Below, one piece after another: positions 3,632 through 36,199 of a stretch of DNA of 36,896 nucleotides. The position numbers were made by a program, and so were the translations under genes. Under the pieces are notes generated by a model. That model saw nothing but the letters and a program-made list of their open reading frames with translations. It did no database searches and was not told the origin of the DNA. Position 1 is the first letter of the stretch, and every line of letters begins with the position of its first letter. The stretch is from a virus (taxonomy: Duplodnaviria > Heunggongvirae > Uroviricota > Caudoviricetes): the IMG/VR virus record IMGVR_UViG_643348551_000010. One strand, 5' to 3'.

Positions 3632-5134
3632 TTACACCTGTGCGACGTTATACCATGTGCCATTGATGTATTTTTGTATTGGTCTGAAGATGGCTTCATC
3701 ATCGCCATCTACTTCACCAATGATTCTTAATCCGGTAATTGCGTGTCCGGCTTTTTCATAACGACCACCACGCGCCATCAATTGAACAACACGCGTACCC
3801 AGGCGAACATCTTTCACATAACGGGAATCAAAGTTACCGTAATCCGAGGGGTTAACACGCCCTGTAATATTTATGGTTTTATTACTTTGAATGCTGCCGG
3901 AGACAAAGCGCATAACATGGACGTTATTAGCATAAACGTCCAGATTACCGTCGCCATTTTGTTTAAAGCCCGTGTCATTATCACCCAAAACAATCGAGTT
4001 ACCGCCAAGAGCACTGGATGTTCCGATACCCAGTGCACCATTCAATTGACCACCAGATAATGACAACGCCCCAACATCAGCAGCAGTCGGTTTTATGTGC
4101 GAACTGTAAATTACATATACAGTCCCATCTGTCAGGCCTGTCGGTTTATTCGCTGTATAAGTTGGTGATGTATGAATTTGTACAGTGGCATCCTTTGTAT
4201 AATCCCACTGGATATTAACACCCGTGGCGTAATTACCTATTTCTACATAAATGTCATAGGTATCACCGGATGTATTCACCCATGCAAAATTAGTAAATCC
4301 AACCGAGGTCCGTCGCCATAATGCACCAGTAATACCCTTTGGATTTCCATTTCCGGCACGCAGAACCAGCTCAGAGATGCCTGCTTGCTGCGGGGAGCCA
4401 ACGTTATACCCTGCACCACCAATCAGGCTTATGTAAACCACGGAACTGGCTTGTGGCATTGTTACAGTTGCCAGTTTGAACCATCCTGCACCACCATTAA
4501 AAGACATGGTTGTTGAATTTGTTGCTCCAATATTGCGCAGGAATAATCTTTTATCAGGAATATCTGCGCCATTCTGGTTTTTCTGCAACGCACCAGAAGC
4601 CTGATTTACCGTTTCCTGTAAACCGAGGTTTTGGATAAACAGCGGCTTATTGGGAATATCTGCTCCGTTCCGGTCTTTTGCCAGACGGGCATTGGCATTA
4701 TCCATCGCAATTTTCACCGCTTTTGCGGTGGCTGCCAGCGTTTCACTGGGGCTGTCAGTGGCACTGGTTAGCTGAACGAGTCCTTTTTTGTTCAGGCTGG
4801 CATCATAGATATCCAGATTTTCACGTGCTGTACGCTGTGCTGATGCCCCGGCAATTTTAATTTCGCTGAGGTTATTTTTTATCAGCAGCGCGTTATTGCT
4901 CATAATGGATTTAATGGACAGTGCAAGCTGGTTTAATTTTGTTTTATCCGGTTGAATACCGGCTTCTTCCAGCGTGTTTAATAACTCCGCCTGCACAATA
5001 TTAAACCAGTCCATGCCGGGCCATGTGATAACATTATTCCCGTCACCTTCTGAAAACCAGCGAACGATAGCACTACGCTGGGCGGATACGGGCGGCATGA
5101 CGGTTACGCCGCTGTCGTTATCAATATAAAACAT
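3632..5134 (-). CDS. S: Tail fibre protein S (constant part outside G joined to variable part inside G)
   Basis: 500-aa ORF spanning the gix site at 4613-4638; internal duplicated NGADIP.K.LF motif flanking the crossover region. Confidence 0.85.
   Translation of the reverse strand: MFYIDNDSGVTVMPPVSAQRSAIVRWFSEGDGNNVITWPGMDWFNIVQAELLNTLEEAGIQPDKTKLNQLALSIKSIMSNNALLIKNNLSEIKIAGASAQRTARENLDIYDASLNKKGLVQLTSATDSPSETLAATAKAVKIAMDNANARLAKDRNGADIPNKPLFIQNLGLQETVNQASGALQKNQNGADIPDKRLFLRNIGATNSTTMSFNGGAGWFKLATVTMPQASSVVYISLIGGAGYNVGSPQQAGISELVLRAGNGNPKGITGALWRRTSVGFTNFAWVNTSGDTYDIYVEIGNYATGVNIQWDYTKDATVQIHTSPTYTANKPTGLTDGTVYVIYSSHIKPTAADVGALSLSGGQLNGALGIGTSSALGGNSIVLGDNDTGFKQNGDGNLDVYANNVHVMRFVSGSIQSNKTINITGRVNPSDYGNFDSRYVKDVRLGTRVVQLMARGGRYEKAGHAITGLRIIGEVDGDDEAIFRPIQKYINGTWYNVAQV
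4613..4638. repeat. gix recombination site (S-internal)
   Basis: ttcctgtaaaccgaggttttggataa, inverted copy of 1566-1591. Inverted-repeat identity continues inward for about 46 bp perfectly and about 115 bp imperfectly. Confidence 0.85.
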
Positions 5135-5676: not shown

Positions 5677-6749
5677 TCAATTGTCCCCGGTGTTAACAGT
5701 TCCGTATTCTCCGAACGCTGGATCTCTGTCGGGAAACGCACTTCAAAATCATCCAGACCGGTAACACCTGCCACCGCACGGATAATACGGGAGGGGGCAA
5801 GTGCGCCGCCCGGCATCACCTCATTAAAAAACATGGTATTAATGGCGTTGGTAATAGCCTGTTTCAGTTCGGCTGTCTTCGGTGATATATAAATCCGTGG
5901 ATTTACCGGCTTTGCCTTTGGCGCAAATACCGTGACATTTACACCGTCAGGCTGTCCGACAATCAGACCAGTGATCGGGTCAGTATGACCGGCGATATAA
6001 TCCGCCACGCGTTCCACGTCTGCCGGTTGCGGAAAAATATTGCTCCGGTTATCCATAACAAACGTCACCCCGACTGTGCCACCGCCTTTCCATGTCGGAA
6101 AACACCAGGCGCGGGTAACGCCGCTGACTTCACGTGCCCAGCGAACGTAATCAAACTGATTACCGCCGAACGGAGGGTACTGGACACGATATTCCAGCCG
6201 TGACAGCAGCTCCGCTGCACTCTCAATATCAGCCCCACCGGAAAACCCTTTTACAGTGATGGCATCGGAAACAACACAGGCAACCGGGGTGATCAACGTT
6301 AAAAGGGTATTCTCACCGGTATTTCCTGCCTCACCGGCAGCCAGTGCGGTAACGGTAATTTCCGTCGTTCCTGCATGGTCAATCACAATGGCATCAGCCA
6401 GGCTGTAAACCACACCATCAGCACGCTGCCAGCGTGTACCGGCAGGAATGGTTGTCGCTGCCGATGTGGTGACAGTCAGCGGGCCGCTGGCGGCTGTCGC
6501 CTGTTTGCGGCGCACACCCCAGAACCGGCAGTGCTCCAGCAACTCATCTTCATCTGCTGTCGACGGGATAATCTGCCGCCCAACCCACGAAATATGCTCG
6601 TGACAACCGGCAGCAAGCCCTGCCTGGGCGTAAGCAATGGCACTCAGCGTTTTTTCACGGGCCTGAGGCCAGCTACCCGGCAGGCGCTGTTCAATATTCT
6701 GTTCTGTACGGGCAATCAGCGATGATAATGTCGGTGGTGAATAAGCCAT
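5667..6749 (-). CDS. Baseplate protein (Mu gp47 / J-like wedge, tentative)
   Basis: 360 aa, synteny within the baseplate cluster. Confidence 0.7.
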   Translation of the reverse strand: MAYSPPTLSSLIARTEQNIEQRLPGSWPQAREKTLSAIAYAQAGLAAGCHEHISWVGRQIIPSTADEDELLEHCRFWGVRRKQATAASGPLTVTTSAATTIPAGTRWQRADGVVYSLADAIVIDHAGTTEITVTALAAGEAGNTGENTLLTLITPVACVVSDAITVKGFSGGADIESAAELLSRLEYRVQYPPFGGNQFDYVRWAREVSGVTRAWCFPTWKGGGTVGVTFVMDNRSNIFPQPADVERVADYIAGHTDPITGLIVGQPDGVNVTVFAPKAKPVNPRIYISPKTAELKQAITNAINTMFFNEVMPGGALAPSRIIRAVAGVTGLDDFEVRFPTEIQRSENTELLTPGTIEWL

Positions 6750-25357: not shown

Positions 25358-25786
25358 TTACAGCCCTGACGACATACCCGGCATTAATCCCGGCACCGGT
25401 AACACATCATCATTCAGCAGCTGATTATTACGGGGAGCGGGCACAGCACCAGAACCGGCGCTGAACATAAACACCGCCAGTGCATTTTTTTGCTCCTCTG
25501 TCAGTGGCCTGTTCAGATGGGTATTTAACGTGTCATAAACAGGCTTCAAATCTGCTTTCAACAGCATGATGCATTCACCATAGCTGTAAGGGCGTTGCTG
25601 AATATCAGGACCGTGATGGTTAAGGCAAACAGTCAGTTCGCCGTGCTGATCTGTGTATGGAAGGTACTGAACAGAAGCCAGCGATGAATCACCATCGCCG
25701 GACAACTGCCAGCCACCACATGCCGCCAGTACCACGATGGCAAGCGTTCTGATGATGCGGGGGAGACGTTTTTTAAAATCGTTCAT
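25358..25786 (-). CDS. lys: Endolysin with signal-anchor / lipobox-like N-terminus (lysozyme-like core)
   Basis: 142 aa, ATG 25784-25786 with AGGAGG SD; N-terminus MNDFKKRLPRIIRTLAIVVLAACGG; core motif LTVCLNHHGPDI resembles lysozyme-like endolysins; first gene after C, as in Mu. Confidence 0.65.
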   Translation of the reverse strand: MNDFKKRLPRIIRTLAIVVLAACGGWQLSGDGDSSLASVQYLPYTDQHGELTVCLNHHGPDIQQRPYSYGECIMLLKADLKPVYDTLNTHLNRPLTEEQKNALAVFMFSAGSGAVPAPRNNQLLNDDVLPVPGLMPGMSSGL

Positions 25787-26812: not shown

Positions 26813-27023
26813 GATGCTTTTCCCTGTAACGCTGGCAGTGGTGAATAATTTCTGGCATATCGACTGACTGCCAGCCTTTCATGTAATAGCTCCCGTGGGT
26901 GCCATCGTGCCCTGTGTAATCCATTGGCTTTGGTGGTGGACCTCCGGCCTCCCGATGCAACACCTCCTGTCGTAAACGTTCGCGTCTGCCAAACCGAAAG
27001 GACGCATCCCACCCTTTACCCAT
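26805..27023 (-). CDS. Hypothetical middle-operon protein
   Basis: 72 aa; ATG 27021-27023 overlaps the stop of the muramidase gene, SD gggagg 8 nt upstream. Confidence 0.6.
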   Translation of the reverse strand: MGKGWDASFRFGRRERLRQEVLHREAGGPPPKPMDYTGHDGTHGSYYMKGWQSVDMPEIIHHCQRYREKHHV

Positions 27024-27576
27024 GCAGAACCTCCCGGCAGGCGCTGGCGAGCAGATCCAGACGGTTAAACCAGCCGTTCAGATATTTCCCCTGCGAGGCA
27101 CTGGATTTGATAATCCCTGCGTAATAGCGGGAACGACGCAGGAAACACTGCAACAGCAGCCAGTCAGTATCGGCACGCAGTACGGCTGCGCGAGTGTTTT
27201 TGCCGACGATGCCATCATCATCAACACCTGCTGCCGCCTGGAGGATTTGAATTGCGCGTTTAACACCGTGCTGAACGGCAGCATCAAAGACGAATAAGGA
27301 AACACCATCAGGCCATTCGTTACACTTTGCCGCCAGCCAGTAATCACGCCAGTAGATTTGCGCCGCCTGCTCGTGGGTTAAATCTTTAATACGGGTATCA
27401 GGCTTCCCGTCACCGTTAACATCGGTTTTGCCATCAATAACGCCGTCGCGACGGTCAGAAATGCCGTATTTGGTTTCGCCGCCACGGTCAGTGGGATCAT
27501 TAACGTAACCACCTTCAACATCAGGCCGTATAACAAAATTCAGCGAATGAAGGAATGCAGGGGAAAACTCAGGCAT
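27016..27576 (-). CDS. GH108-family peptidoglycan hydrolase-like protein (predicted muramidase with C-terminal PG-binding-like region)
   Basis: Motif EGGYVNDPTDRGGETKYGI typical of the GH108 N-terminal domain; start set at ATG 27574-27576 with SD aggaggg (the track start at 27609 is a GTG). Confidence 0.7.
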   Translation of the reverse strand: MPEFSPAFLHSLNFVIRPDVEGGYVNDPTDRGGETKYGISDRRDGVIDGKTDVNGDGKPDTRIKDLTHEQAAQIYWRDYWLAAKCNEWPDGVSLFVFDAAVQHGVKRAIQILQAAAGVDDDGIVGKNTRAAVLRADTDWLLLQCFLRRSRYYAGIIKSSASQGKYLNGWFNRLDLLASACREVLHG

Positions 27577-27632
27577 GTTGCCCTCCTGTAATGAACGTTT
27601 TATCGTCACAACAGAATATTGAGGGCGTAAAA

Positions 27633-27658: not shown

Positions 27659-28048
27659 TTAAAACAGAGGGGGTTGATACTGACGATACTTTATACGCCG
27701 CATTCGTCGGATGGCTTTATAGACAGTGTTAAACGTCACACCATAACGAATTGCCAGTTCGTGAACATTGCGCCCGTTAAAATCATTCCAGATTCGTAAA
27801 TCCCGAACCAGTGAATCCAGCACCTGCCCACGAGGAATATAGACCTGACCACCGCCAAGATGTTTACAGATAGCCACAACAATCTCCAGAGAGTGCGCAG
27901 GTTCAACGCCCAGCCGGGACAGTTCCTGACGCAGCACATCGTTCAGTTCCGCCAGCAGTGCCGGAAATCGTGACGTATCCCCGGATTCATTGTCAAGATG
28001 AGCCAGGATACTGTCATCCTGAAAGTCGCCAAACAAATCCTGCGTCAT
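27659..28048 (-). CDS. mor: Middle operon regulator Mor
   Basis: 129 aa; ATG overlaps the gemA stop (ATGA); paralog of C. Confidence 0.9.
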   Translation of the reverse strand: MTQDLFGDFQDDSILAHLDNESGDTSRFPALLAELNDVLRQELSRLGVEPAHSLEIVVAICKHLGGGQVYIPRGQVLDSLVRDLRIWNDFNGRNVHELAIRYGVTFNTVYKAIRRMRRIKYRQYQPPLF

Positions 28049-28611
28049 TGTGCCAGTCTCCGTGTTTTTCTTGCACGGGCATAAGCTGCTGTCATGGCAT
28101 CATAGCCACGCAGTTCACGCCCGGACGGGCTGACCGGCAACGGGAGCCCATAATGGGAAAAGGCTTCACGGATACAGCGGATGTGCCACTGTTTCAGGGT
28201 TTCAAGCACAATTTGTAACGATTCTCCGTGACACCACGCCAGCGTGGAAACACCCTGTCCGCCATTACGTCTGGCTGTCAGTCGTTCGACGTATTTATCC
28301 AGTGCTGTATCACTGCCATCGGCAATAAAACCGTCTTCTGCCATTTGCTGCCAGATTTTTAATACCTTTTCGTGGGGCGTTACATGCCCATTAAAGCGAC
28401 GGCGTGGGTGTTTATTCTGCTTCTTAAAACCGCGTTCTTTCATGGCATCGAGCACCAGCTCCAGTTGCGCGACGGTCAGCTCACGGCAACTGATTTTGCC
28501 CGTGTTCTGCATCAGAAAGGCACGGTAGGTGTCGTCGTCGAGTTGTAGCTCCCGACGGGCGACATGGATTAATTTAATAAGCGATGTGCGATTCACTTGC
28601 TCACCTCTCAT
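28045..28611 (-). CDS. gemA: GemA (host gene expression modulation protein)
   Basis: 188 aa from ATG 28609-28611 (MRGEQVNRTS...); immediately upstream of mor, as in Mu. Confidence 0.8.
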   Translation of the reverse strand: MRGEQVNRTSLIKLIHVARRELQLDDDTYRAFLMQNTGKISCRELTVAQLELVLDAMKERGFKKQNKHPRRRFNGHVTPHEKVLKIWQQMAEDGFIADGSDTALDKYVERLTARRNGGQGVSTLAWCHGESLQIVLETLKQWHIRCIREAFSHYGLPLPVSPSGRELRGYDAMTAAYARARKTRRLAQ

Positions 28612-28626
28612 ATTAAGGAATGAGAT

Positions 28627-29043
28627 ATGAAAATTGATTATGACGAGATAGCCAGAATATTTGATGTATTCCTGGAGGCCGACACTGCATTCATTCGACT
28701 GGAAGATGTCGGCTGGGATCGTTCTCAGCGGCACAGCGACAGCCATCAGAAGCTGGTTTTCCATCTTCTGTTGCTGGTTGAAAATGGTTTTATCAGCAAC
28801 AGATATCTGGAAACAGGCACCGCAAAAAGCATTGGTCTCACCCCGACAAGCCTCGGATATTCATATTCAGGCACCAGTGTCAGACTCACACAAGATGGTC
28901 ATGATTTTGCGAAAGCACTACATCAAAAACCCATTCTTGAGCGTATAAAACAGGAGCTTGCCGACGCCCCGATGACGCTCGTAACAGACGTCGGCAAACA
29001 GTGGTTAACCTCGTTTCTTAAAAAGAAACTCGGGATTGAATAG
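28627..29043 (+). CDS. Hypothetical 138-aa protein encoded opposite to the early operon (candidate prophage-expressed accessory gene)
   Basis: ATG 28627 with SD aagga 7 nt upstream; fills a 393-nt interval with no minus-strand ORF; start codon only 15 nt from the divergent gemA start; 3' end converges on the next early gene. Confidence 0.6.
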   Translation: MKIDYDEIARIFDVFLEADTAFIRLEDVGWDRSQRHSDSHQKLVFHLLLLVENGFISNRYLETGTAKSIGLTPTSLGYSYSGTSVRLTQDGHDFAKALHQKPILERIKQELADAPMTLVTDVGKQWLTSFLKKKLGIE

Positions 29044-29316
29044 TTCCCGGTTCATACGTTGCAGCACATCAAGGGCGGCGACAGCCGCCACTTTATCGTT
29101 GCCATCAGCAATAGTGCGGAGATTTTCAATAATCCAGTGAGGACTCAGTGACTCAGCAACAATGCCCAGTCGGTACGCCATGACCTCATCAATAGCCTGT
29201 TCGTAAGACGGGGCATATACAAAGGCCACAAAGTCGTTGACCTCGTTTTCCGGTAAACCACCGGCAATCAGCAGGGCTGTAAGTTCTTCTGATTTTGTAA
29301 ATACGCCATTATTCAT
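29005..29316 (-). CDS. Small early protein (Mu gp15-position, tentative)
   Basis: 103 aa from ATG 29314-29316, coupled to the stop of the upstream gene at 29309-29311. Confidence 0.55.
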   Translation of the reverse strand: MNNGVFTKSEELTALLIAGGLPENEVNDFVAFVYAPSYEQAIDEVMAYRLGIVAESLSPHWIIENLRTIADGNDKVAAVAALDVLQRMNRELFNPEFLFKKRG

Positions 29317-35421: not shown

Positions 35422-35590
35422 TCTGCGATCCTTACTCACTTAACGTTTTCGGTAACTGATACCGGCTACCGCTATCGGGAAAAACGATAGCGCAGAAAAA
35501 TGCGCATTTCAAGAGCTGTGCGCATTTTTATTTTAACAAATGCAAATCAAAGCATTCTGTAAAATTTTTTATATAACAGAGAGATTTAAC
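35422..35590. promoter_or_regulatory. Divergent early / repressor promoter-operator region between ner and c
   Basis: Perfect 8-bp inverted repeat cgctatcg-N7-cgatagcg at 35470-35492; direct repeats TGCGCATTT at 35501-35509 and 35519-35527; AT-rich tatata upstream of c. Confidence 0.6.
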
Positions 35591-36199
35591 ATGACAGGCG
35601 AAAAAGAAAGCAAAAATGCAGAGCGCATTTTTATGCCCTCGGAAATAATGCGTTTCAAGGAACGCCTTGAAGAGGCAATGAATGGAGAATCAAGCCGGGC
35701 GTTTGCAGCTAAGTGCGGACTTTCTGATGGGGTTATCAGAAACTACCTGTCTGGCAAGACATACCCGTCTTTAGATCGATTAGCACAAATAGCCTACGCA
35801 ACAGGGCGTCCAATAGAGTGGTTTATCCAAAGTCAGAGCATGCCAATGGTTGAGCATAAAAATGCTCGAGAGAATAAAAATCCTCAACCTGACCGCAGCA
35901 CATTGAAAACTAAACTGATCGCAATTGTCGAATTGTTAGAGGACAAGGAACTGCATTCTGCGATTGAGTTGTTCAGAAAGAAAGGATTTGAAGCTCTTAT
36001 GCCTGAGATTTTTTCTTCCGATGATTCCATCCAGGCTGATTTGCAAGGTATTTCGCAGCAAACCTTACAAACAGCCAAAATGCTTGAATCATTACCAACA
36101 GATACCCGTAAAGAGATTTTGTCAAAGTATGGTATTTATGAACAGGAATGTCTTGTAGCTCCTTCACAAGAACCACAAGATGTAAAAAAAGCCGTATAA
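35591..36199 (+). CDS. c: Prophage repressor c (lysogeny maintenance); N-terminal DNA-binding domain appears to differ from Mu c (from memory)
   Basis: Only long leftward gene at the phage left end; C-terminus ...SKYGIYEQECLVAPSQEPQDVKKAV resembles the Mu repressor C-terminus; start set at ATG 35591, alternative at 35540. Confidence 0.85.
   Translation: MTGEKESKNAERIFMPSEIMRFKERLEEAMNGESSRAFAAKCGLSDGVIRNYLSGKTYPSLDRLAQIAYATGRPIEWFIQSQSMPMVEHKNARENKNPQPDRSTLKTKLIAIVELLEDKELHSAIELFRKKGFEALMPEIFSSDDSIQADLQGISQQTLQTAKMLESLPTDTRKEILSKYGIYEQECLVAPSQEPQDVKKAV

Follow-up and report, generated by a model that had tools for sequence, protein, structure and literature searches.

In E. coli phage phi80, the late operon that depends on Q contains an antisense gene, taiEcA (orf63), whose product is present in lysogens and blocks other phages. 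Its in-line neighbour atiEcA (orf64) is a lytic-cycle gene that counteracts Tai, and late transcription also reduces Tai levels (He et al. 2024, PMC11364771). In the prophage 80alpha of Staphylococcus aureus, tha and ith show mutually exclusive expression and head-on transcription, by which they are coupled to lysogeny and lysis (Rostol et al. 2024, PMC11087260). Here, a comparable locus is described in a Mu-like prophage, IMG/VR virus record IMGVR_UViG_643348551_000010, whose whole analysed stretch of 36,896 nucleotides (nt) is called the window: an opposite-strand gene of the DUF2513 family lies within the early lytic operon, next to gemA, and converges on a small in-line gene, here named G14. 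Single extra genes that lie between backbone genes in some phages only, the lambdoid morons such as HK97 gp15 (cited in PMC9936078 and PMC4378225), form a further class with which the locus was compared. The DUF2513 gene is read here, with a probability of roughly 0.45, as a lysogen-expressed accessory gene that forms a two-gene switch with G14 of the noncontiguous operon type and serves in immunity, exclusion or regulation.

The layout of the window agrees with that of Tai/Ati, in which an antisense prophage gene also lies within a lytic operon beside a small in-line gene. The two systems differ in protein size (204 amino acids (aa) for TaiEcA, 138 aa for the DUF2513 protein) and in geometry, tai and ati being divergent with overlapping 5' ends, whereas DUF2513 and G14 are convergent with overlapping 3' ends. 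The phi80 pair, which has a known phenotype, lies in the late operon of a lambdoid phage. With Tha/Ith, the locus shares adjacent and opposed prophage genes, and in Tha/Ith one small partner inhibits the other. There, however, the polarity is mirrored: it is the lysogenic cI operon that is opposed by an antisense gene, and this gene encodes the lytic inhibitor. The two proteins, a HEPN RNase and a small Xis-like protein, are not related to DUF2513 and G14, and the host is Gram-positive. Like a moron, the DUF2513 gene is present or absent among otherwise similar genomes, lies between backbone genes and is plausibly expressed from the prophage, but no promoter of its own was recognised by sigma-70 consensus, its guanine-plus-cytosine (GC) content is not deviant and it has a conserved partner gene.

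The DUF2513 gene and its convergent partner

The pair and its start region comprise the following features, where ORF denotes an open reading frame:

28627..29043, plus strand: DUF2513-family gene of 138 aa with an ATG start, predicted to encode a winged-helix domain with a C-terminal helical extension
28616..28620, plus strand: Shine-Dalgarno-like AAGGA, 6 nt ahead of the ATG, read from the sequence and the same in locus L009
29005..29316, minus strand: G14, 103 aa, predicted to be all-helical, co-directional with the early operon and converging on the DUF2513 gene (PHROG 1988, E 2.7e-49)
29005..29043, no strand: overlap of 39 nt between the DUF2513 and G14 genes at their 3' ends, from the coordinates

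The ORF at 28627..29043 is a genuine gene under strong purifying selection. Among the six frames across its interval, only the 138-aa frame was free of stops. In this frame, 37 synonymous and 6 nonsynonymous changes separated the copies in L010 and L020, and 6 synonymous and 1 nonsynonymous changes separated the window from the MIN10 copy. The ratio of nonsynonymous to synonymous changes (pN/pS) was ~0.05 in the ORF frame and 0.15 to 10 in the five other frames, and the corresponding dN/dS was 0.11-0.14 against homologues of 49-64% identity. An earlier note on this DNA had described a 138-aa opposite-strand ORF with a Shine-Dalgarno sequence inside the early operon, and this description was borne out, with AAGGA and ATG in place and all neighbours on the minus strand. 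The doubt raised there, that the ORF might be poorly conserved and free of codon-level constraint, was dispelled by the low pN/pS and by homologues at 30-64% identity.

The gemA start is most probably the GTG at 28596, from which the protein reads MNRTSLIKL (MSRTSLIKL in Mu) and which is also the start in the RefSeq annotation. Counted from this GTG, the divergent start codons of gemA and DUF2513 are 30 nt apart, and the distance of 15 nt given previously holds only for the ATG at 28611. At so short a distance, any plus-strand promoter must lie within the gemA coding sequence, as had been argued. The statement that this interval has no minus-strand ORF held only in part, since the gemA frame is open to an ATG at 28764 and a 47-aa ORF with a GTG start occupies 28746..28889; neither is backed by homology or by substitutions. 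The open gemA frame (28597-28764, minus strand) extends 56 codons upstream of the likely GTG, antisense through the DUF2513 gene. It seems to be a side effect of DUF2513 coding on the other strand and not a longer GemA, because homology with other GemA proteins begins at 28596.

The converging gene G14 had been missed in the earlier note. A total of 54 homologues of G14 were found, and its AlphaFold2 model was all-helical (predicted local distance difference test (pLDDT) 81.8, predicted template modelling score (pTM) 0.45), with no informative fold match. To describe the linkage, DUF2513 proteins were collapsed at 80% identity into lineages (n=22), and kinship with G14 was assessed by pairwise BLASTP and hidden Markov models (HMMs). 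A G14 gene converges on DUF2513 in 12 of the 22 lineages, with 3' overlaps of 39, 30 or 15 nt or with abutting ends (0, -2 or -3 nt). In all loci found here with DUF2513 next to the gemA start, the converging gene is of the G14 family. The convergence was also observed outside the gemA context, namely in a baseplate operon between the genes for a gpV-like spike and a sheath initiator (L070, L071, L074 and L075), and in L051, L061, L062 and L076. The presence of the pair within the baseplate operon argues that DUF2513 and G14 are able to move together. In all these positions, G14 is co-directional with the surrounding operon and DUF2513 is opposed to it.

A survey of G14 loci, for which a narrower G14 alignment was used, covered 56 loci. 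DUF2513 was present in 23 of them and a Mu gp14-like gene in 10 (8 of these also with gp15), and in the remaining 23 gemA came next, either directly or after small in-line ORFs that span 460-800 nt. G14 is widespread as an early gene, and this subfamily of DUF2513 is seldom found without it. A second backwards ORF was observed in the pair-bearing baseplate operon (L070, 2031-2417, plus strand); it encodes 128 aa with a signal-peptide-like N-terminus and is located between a baseplate J-like gene and the tail gene that follows.

Because the 3' ends overlap, no terminator would fit between DUF2513 and G14, and the early transcript would have to run antisense through DUF2513 and the DUF2513 transcript into G14. 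One signal of this kind was found further downstream:

29074..29089, plus strand: terminator-like GC hairpin GGCGGCgacaGCCGCC followed by ACTTTATCGT, a weak T tract, from a consensus scan

This hairpin lies 31 nt past the DUF2513 stop, within the reading frame of G14, and its sequence specifies the conserved AAVAA motif of the G14 protein. Two hairpins follow the DUF2513 stop, and the RNA fold z-score for 29030..29110 was -3.1. By its sequence, the 29074..29089 hairpin looks like a candidate terminator.

Other DUF2513 relatives were found directly downstream of Arc/Mnt-like ribbon-helix-helix genes facing antirepressor genes (L053 and L076), as the final phage gene ahead of the transfer-messenger RNA (tmRNA) gene (L073), between the lysis and terminase genes of Klebsiella phage ST846-OXA48phi9.2, and adjoining xis and int in phage Chlobot. 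Such positions are typical of genes expressed in lysogens.

Family and predicted fold of the DUF2513 protein

The protein matched PHROG 585 over residues 1-137 of 138 (E 2.2e-31). The match to Pfam DUF2513 (PF10711) covered residues 38-112 with an E-value of 0.011 and 16.5 bits, under the gathering score of 29.6 bits, and close homologues (P0006, P0008, P0010 and others) have a precomputed PF10711 match. On sequence grounds, the window protein belongs to PHROG 585 and, at the periphery, to DUF2513. A word-indexed search returned 29 relatives at 30-64% identity, and an exhaustive profile search returned 452 cluster representatives (E <= 1e-3), nearly all of them stand-alone proteins of 125-150 aa that aligned end to end. 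NCBIfam gave no match for the DUF2513 protein or G14, and Pfam gave the sub-threshold DUF2513 match for the former and nothing for the latter. There was no mention of the term 'DUF2513' in the searchable literature.

With an alignment of 23 sequences, AlphaFold2 predicted a winged-helix domain followed by a helical tail (pLDDT 92.5, pTM 0.83). Foldseek scores against the PDB were weak (best E 0.03), and the top matches were all winged-helix regulators, namely FabT, MarR, PadR, LmrR and F-93 of SSV1. The conserved motifs FHLLLLVENGFI and RLTQDGHDFA fall at the positions of the recognition-helix end and the last wing strand of those families. The modelled fold is a winged helix, and DNA binding by the protein is plausible but not assured. 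Unlike the PadR/MarR and F93 winged-helix proteins, the DUF2513 protein has no Pfam PadR or MarR match and few basic residues in its putative recognition helix, and its Foldseek matches to them are at E >= 0.03. No named regulator family was found in Pfam (neither PadR, MarR nor another helix-turn-helix family at E <= 1), in NCBIfam or by a sequence-profile search of the PDB. The protein and HMM searches and the structure prediction that the earlier note had proposed thus yielded PHROG 585, 452 relatives and a confident winged-helix model. Its statement that the function is not recognisable stood insofar as no known defence, toxin or regulator family was matched, and fell short insofar as the predicted winged-helix fold makes the product partly recognisable.

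The slot before gemA in Mu and its relatives

The neighbouring genes and the boundaries of the exchanged segment are as follows:

28596..29064, no strand: cassette swapped relative to SfMu-type phages, with boundaries from blastn
28045..28596, minus strand: gemA, 183 aa, 552 nt, GTG start, divergent from the DUF2513 gene (Pfam GemA, E 1.4e-31)
27659..28048, minus strand: mor, the middle-operon activator, given for context only (Pfam Mor, E 3.9e-33)

In blastn comparisons, similarity with Mu, D108 and SfMu ends at 28595, at the gemA start codon (28594..28596). It picks up at 29065 in SfMu-type genomes, within the last ~20 codons of the upstream gene, and at 29307, the start of the upstream gene, in Mu and D108. 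Where the window has the DUF2513 gene, SfMu has a pair of gp14-like and gp15-like genes; in comparison with Mu and D108, the entire convergent pair is the swapped unit. Two IMG/VR prophages, L149 with DUF2513 and L152 without it, have flanks that are 94-95% identical and differ by a 358-nt indel removing most of DUF2513, indicating that the gene is dispensable. The hotspot that holds the DUF2513 gene as dispensable cargo lies immediately upstream of gemA. The earlier suggestion of extra cargo is upheld by this natural pair and by the sharp homology breaks against Mu, D108 and SfMu, which mark the gene as swappable and not part of the phage backbone. The allele was present in 4 of 5426 complete E. 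coli genomes, and its flanks were matched in 34.

The junction between G14 and gemA also holds in-line cargo in other Mu-like prophages, namely a 65-aa Cys-rich ORF plus a 98-aa ORF in L135, L140 and L145 (2805-3288) and ORFs of 130 and 161 aa in L146 and L147 (2824-3685), which marks it as a general cargo hotspot. In eight IMG/VR loci (L081-L088, ~4001-4162), only the last ~54 codons of the DUF2513 gene were found, 63-65% identical to residues 84-137; these partial genes are apparently truncated remnants in another phage background.

Homologues of the DUF2513 protein with 46-64% identity lie on the opposite strand and adjoin the gemA start in prophages of E. coli, Salmonella and Citrobacter, and also in ~30 IMG/VR loci. 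GemA in those E. coli, Salmonella and Citrobacter prophages is just 44-82% identical to that of the window. When species-representative genomes were scanned with GemA, a pre-gemA opposite-strand gene was found only in Citrobacter braakii, and none was found in the distant Mu-like prophages of Pectobacterium, Brenneria, Photorhabdus, Pseudomonas and Kluyvera. The suggestion that the gene may be unannotated did not hold, as RefSeq E. coli genomes carry it under the name 'DUF2513 domain-containing protein' (WP_000687314.1).

The same slot is occupied in the best known relatives. RefSeq Mu (NC_000929) has an 88-aa opposite-strand gene, gp15 (Mup15, NP_050619; L001 2166-2432), between gemA and gp14, with a 62-nt overlap with gp14, and SfMu has the same opposite-strand gene. 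In D108 (NC_013594; L004 2165-2524, plus strand), gemA and gene 14 are separated by an unannotated gap of 377 nt, in which a 119-aa ORF is open on the opposite strand (PHROG 38610, E 8e-83; isoelectric point (pI) 4.3) and overlaps gene 14 by 53 nt. No opposite-strand gene was found in the slot of Yersinia phage vB_YpM_3 or of the E. coli JCKP02 prophage. Mu gp15 and the D108 ORF resemble the DUF2513 gene in slot, orientation and 3' overlap with the upstream gene; they differ from it in that neither is detectably homologous to DUF2513 or to the other, and in that the coding status of Mu gp15 is disputed. Sequence and profile comparison gave no significant homology among the slot proteins of the window, Mu and D108, and hhalign of the A1 profile with Mu gp15 gave a probability of 0.4%. 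The window protein was not in PHROG 8747, the family of Mu gp15, and among PHROGs it matched only PHROG 585. The in-line partners Mu gp14 and D108 gp14 likewise showed no detectable relation to G14. The view in the earlier note that the early-gene count fits Mu without this gene did not hold as implied, as both Mu and D108 have an opposite-strand ORF of unrelated sequence in this slot. Short motif echoes were noticed in the D108 pair, KLIENGVI (compare LLVENGFI in DUF2513) and ISKGFSAREA; with no significant homology, they are a lead only.

Public Mu records conflict over the coding strand just before gemA (NC_000929 versus AF083977). In the updated GenBank record AF083977 (L037 1901-2068), gp15 is dropped and a same-strand 55-aa ORF, Mu_54, is annotated instead, together with a 'semi-early promoter' immediately ahead of gemA; PMC9239132 acknowledges this update of the annotation. 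Substitutions were uninformative on the coding strand of the gp15 region, where Mu, SfMu and two prophages vary at only 6 sites, and a literature search on the name 'Mup15' returned mouse urinary protein papers only.

A GC inverted repeat (GGCGGTG-N6-CACCGCC or similar) was observed between the gemA start and the slot gene in Mu (L001 ~2096-2165) and D108, in Salmonella and Citrobacter prophages (L010 ~5931-6000 and L020), in L149 and in the empty site of L152, and it is absent from window positions 28597-28626 and from L009. On the early strand of L010, L020 and L152, a T run comes after the repeat and immediately precedes the ribosome-binding site of gemA; in L149 the T run is interrupted. 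Repeat and T run together look like a terminator in front of gemA-mor. As an operator of DUF2513 the repeat was rejected, being found with any slot content and at the empty site and missing in the window.

The prophage as a whole is Mu-like, with Mu-type transposase A, B, Gam, GemA, Mor, C, lysozyme and Gin encoded on the minus strand (Pfam), and its DNA is, in parts, 84-94% identical to Mu, D108 and SfMu. The region of interest is 99.8% identical to prophages of E. coli TUM9757 and PEC422. The closely packed minus-strand neighbours are mor, gemA, the 29005..29316 gene, gam, B and A. GemA of the window is 87-88% identical to GemA of Mu and D108, and the RefSeq label for gemA is 'gp16 family protein' (552 nt). 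An additional endolysin-like gene (27016-27609, minus strand; Glyco_hydro_108 and PG_binding_3) lies directly after mor, a position that in Mu holds the middle promoter and gp18 only; the same GH108 gene is present in L009, and the usual Phage_lysozyme gene is also in the prophage (25358-25786). The gene at the repressor position (35540-36199, plus strand) encodes a 219-aa HTH_3 (Cro/C1-type) protein in which no Mu-type DNA-binding domain was detected, so that the prophage may be heteroimmune to Mu. An Rfam scan found no RNA family anywhere within the window.

Possible roles of the convergent pair

Constraint on the DUF2513 gene, its accessory status, its conserved position and orientation and its linkage to G14 are shown here, and the position fits expression in the prophage while the lytic operon is silent. 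In the preferred reading, the prophage repressor would hold the early promoter off, and DUF2513 would be expressed from its own weak promoter in the 5' part of gemA. It would then serve the lysogen, as a best guess in an immunity- or exclusion-type role or in gene regulation through its winged-helix domain. Upon induction, strong head-on early transcription would silence DUF2513 and produce G14, which may in turn neutralise the DUF2513 protein already made. Lysogen expression, silencing by collision or antisense RNA, an interaction with G14 and the biological role are thus what we infer from the arrangement of the genes.

Several observations weigh against this reading. No G14 partner was found in 9 of the 22 DUF2513 lineages, L077 has a weak G14 match only, between gemA and mor, and 33 of the 56 G14 loci are without DUF2513. 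As G14 often occurs without DUF2513, the linkage could be partly positional, due to the hotspot at the G14-gemA junction, and this hotspot alone could explain part of the association between G14 and DUF2513. No sigma-70 consensus promoter was found upstream of DUF2513 in the window or in 14 other contexts, a relaxed scan of the 15 contexts gave no conserved -35/-10 pair, and start codons 30 nt apart leave little room in the cassette for a promoter. A search for transcriptomes of this type of prophage returned none. Proteins of the family are mildly acidic (pI 4.8-6.7); few residues of the putative recognition helix are basic, and its net charge is -1. Neither the DUF2513 protein nor G14 matched a PADLOC defence model, no sequence relationship to TaiEcA or AtiEcA was found (hhalign probability <0.1%), and the cassette, with 45.8% GC compared to 46-52% in neighbouring early genes and 51.2% in the window, is not deviant in composition.

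A more specific form of the preferred reading is that G14/DUF2513 is an unrecognised pair for immunity and self-protection, which is possible but doubtful. DUF2513 made in the lysogen would interfere with incoming phages or a competitor, and G14, as an early lytic product, would turn DUF2513 off through its protein as well as through the obligatory overlap in antisense. Carriers of G14 only (SfMu, vB_YpM_3 and many prophages) would hold the counter-measure alone, and the pairs of Mu (gp14/gp15) and D108 would be alleles of a like module at the same locus, though not homologous to it.

The predicted fold, closest to MarR, PadR and F93, would also suit a local transcription factor that binds the shared gemA 5' region as a dimer and controls both gemA-mor, through the semi-early promoter, and itself. 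Many MarR- and PadR-type regulators control divergent neighbours. DUF2513 is divergent from gemA in many Mu-like prophages, the semi-early promoter of AF083977 lies directly upstream of gemA, and the inverted repeat precedes gemA in Mu, D108, L010 and L020. Such a regulator is nevertheless unlikely, as the repeat does not track DUF2513 but accompanies Mu gp15, the D108 119-aa ORF and the empty L152 and is absent from the window and L009. The divergent neighbour also varies (gemA, the sheath-initiator gene in L070 and others), the conserved neighbour being the convergent G14, and the recognition helix is poor in basic residues. About as improbable is a lytic accessory gene for host takeover or anti-defence, transcribed from a Mor- or C-type promoter without a -35 element and with an orientation free of regulatory meaning. 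An activator-dependent promoter would fit the missing sigma-70 consensus, the gene is located among early genes of unknown function, and anti-defence genes occur in variable regions of Pseudomonas Mu-like phages (PMC4378225). The orientation, however, is head-on to the strongest lytic transcripts and would be costly, yet it recurs in early and late operons, and relatives occupy lysogen-type positions after Mnt/Arc-like genes, at the prophage end by tmRNA and beside int and xis.

An addiction pair resembling toxin-antitoxin systems, in which one product is harmful and is restrained by the other or by antisense RNA, is less probable again. Two small-protein genes do form a conserved unit in varied positions, and the obligatory 3' antisense overlap recalls RNA-controlled pairs; each gene, however, is widespread without the other, and L152 has kept G14 and lost DUF2513. 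The genes converge, unlike co-directional type II operons, and no toxin or antitoxin domain was found for either protein in Pfam, NCBIfam or PADLOC. That the ORF arose by chance or is decaying without function would agree with the lack of a known function and of any searchable paper naming DUF2513. This explanation is effectively refuted by a pN/pS of 0.05 in its own frame only, by 452 family representatives of nearly always full length, by the confident fold prediction and by a position kept across diverged prophages.

To our knowledge, the stretch just before gemA in the textbook phage Mu has never been explained. The stretch is a hotspot for cargo in which genes facing backwards recur, Mu included. 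The DUF2513 gene is one such alternative among several; it is already annotated and occurs in other prophages too. New here are the predicted winged-helix fold, the exact cassette boundaries, the natural pair with and without the gene and the convergent partnership with G14 across operons. DUF2513/G14 is best filed as an uncharacterised new example of a known architecture, and in two phages studied recently, a like arrangement links an immune function with the switch between lysogeny and lysis. If the preferred reading is true, DUF2513/G14 would add a new protein pair to the repertoire of prophage immunity and self-protection and would give the DUF2513 family a role.
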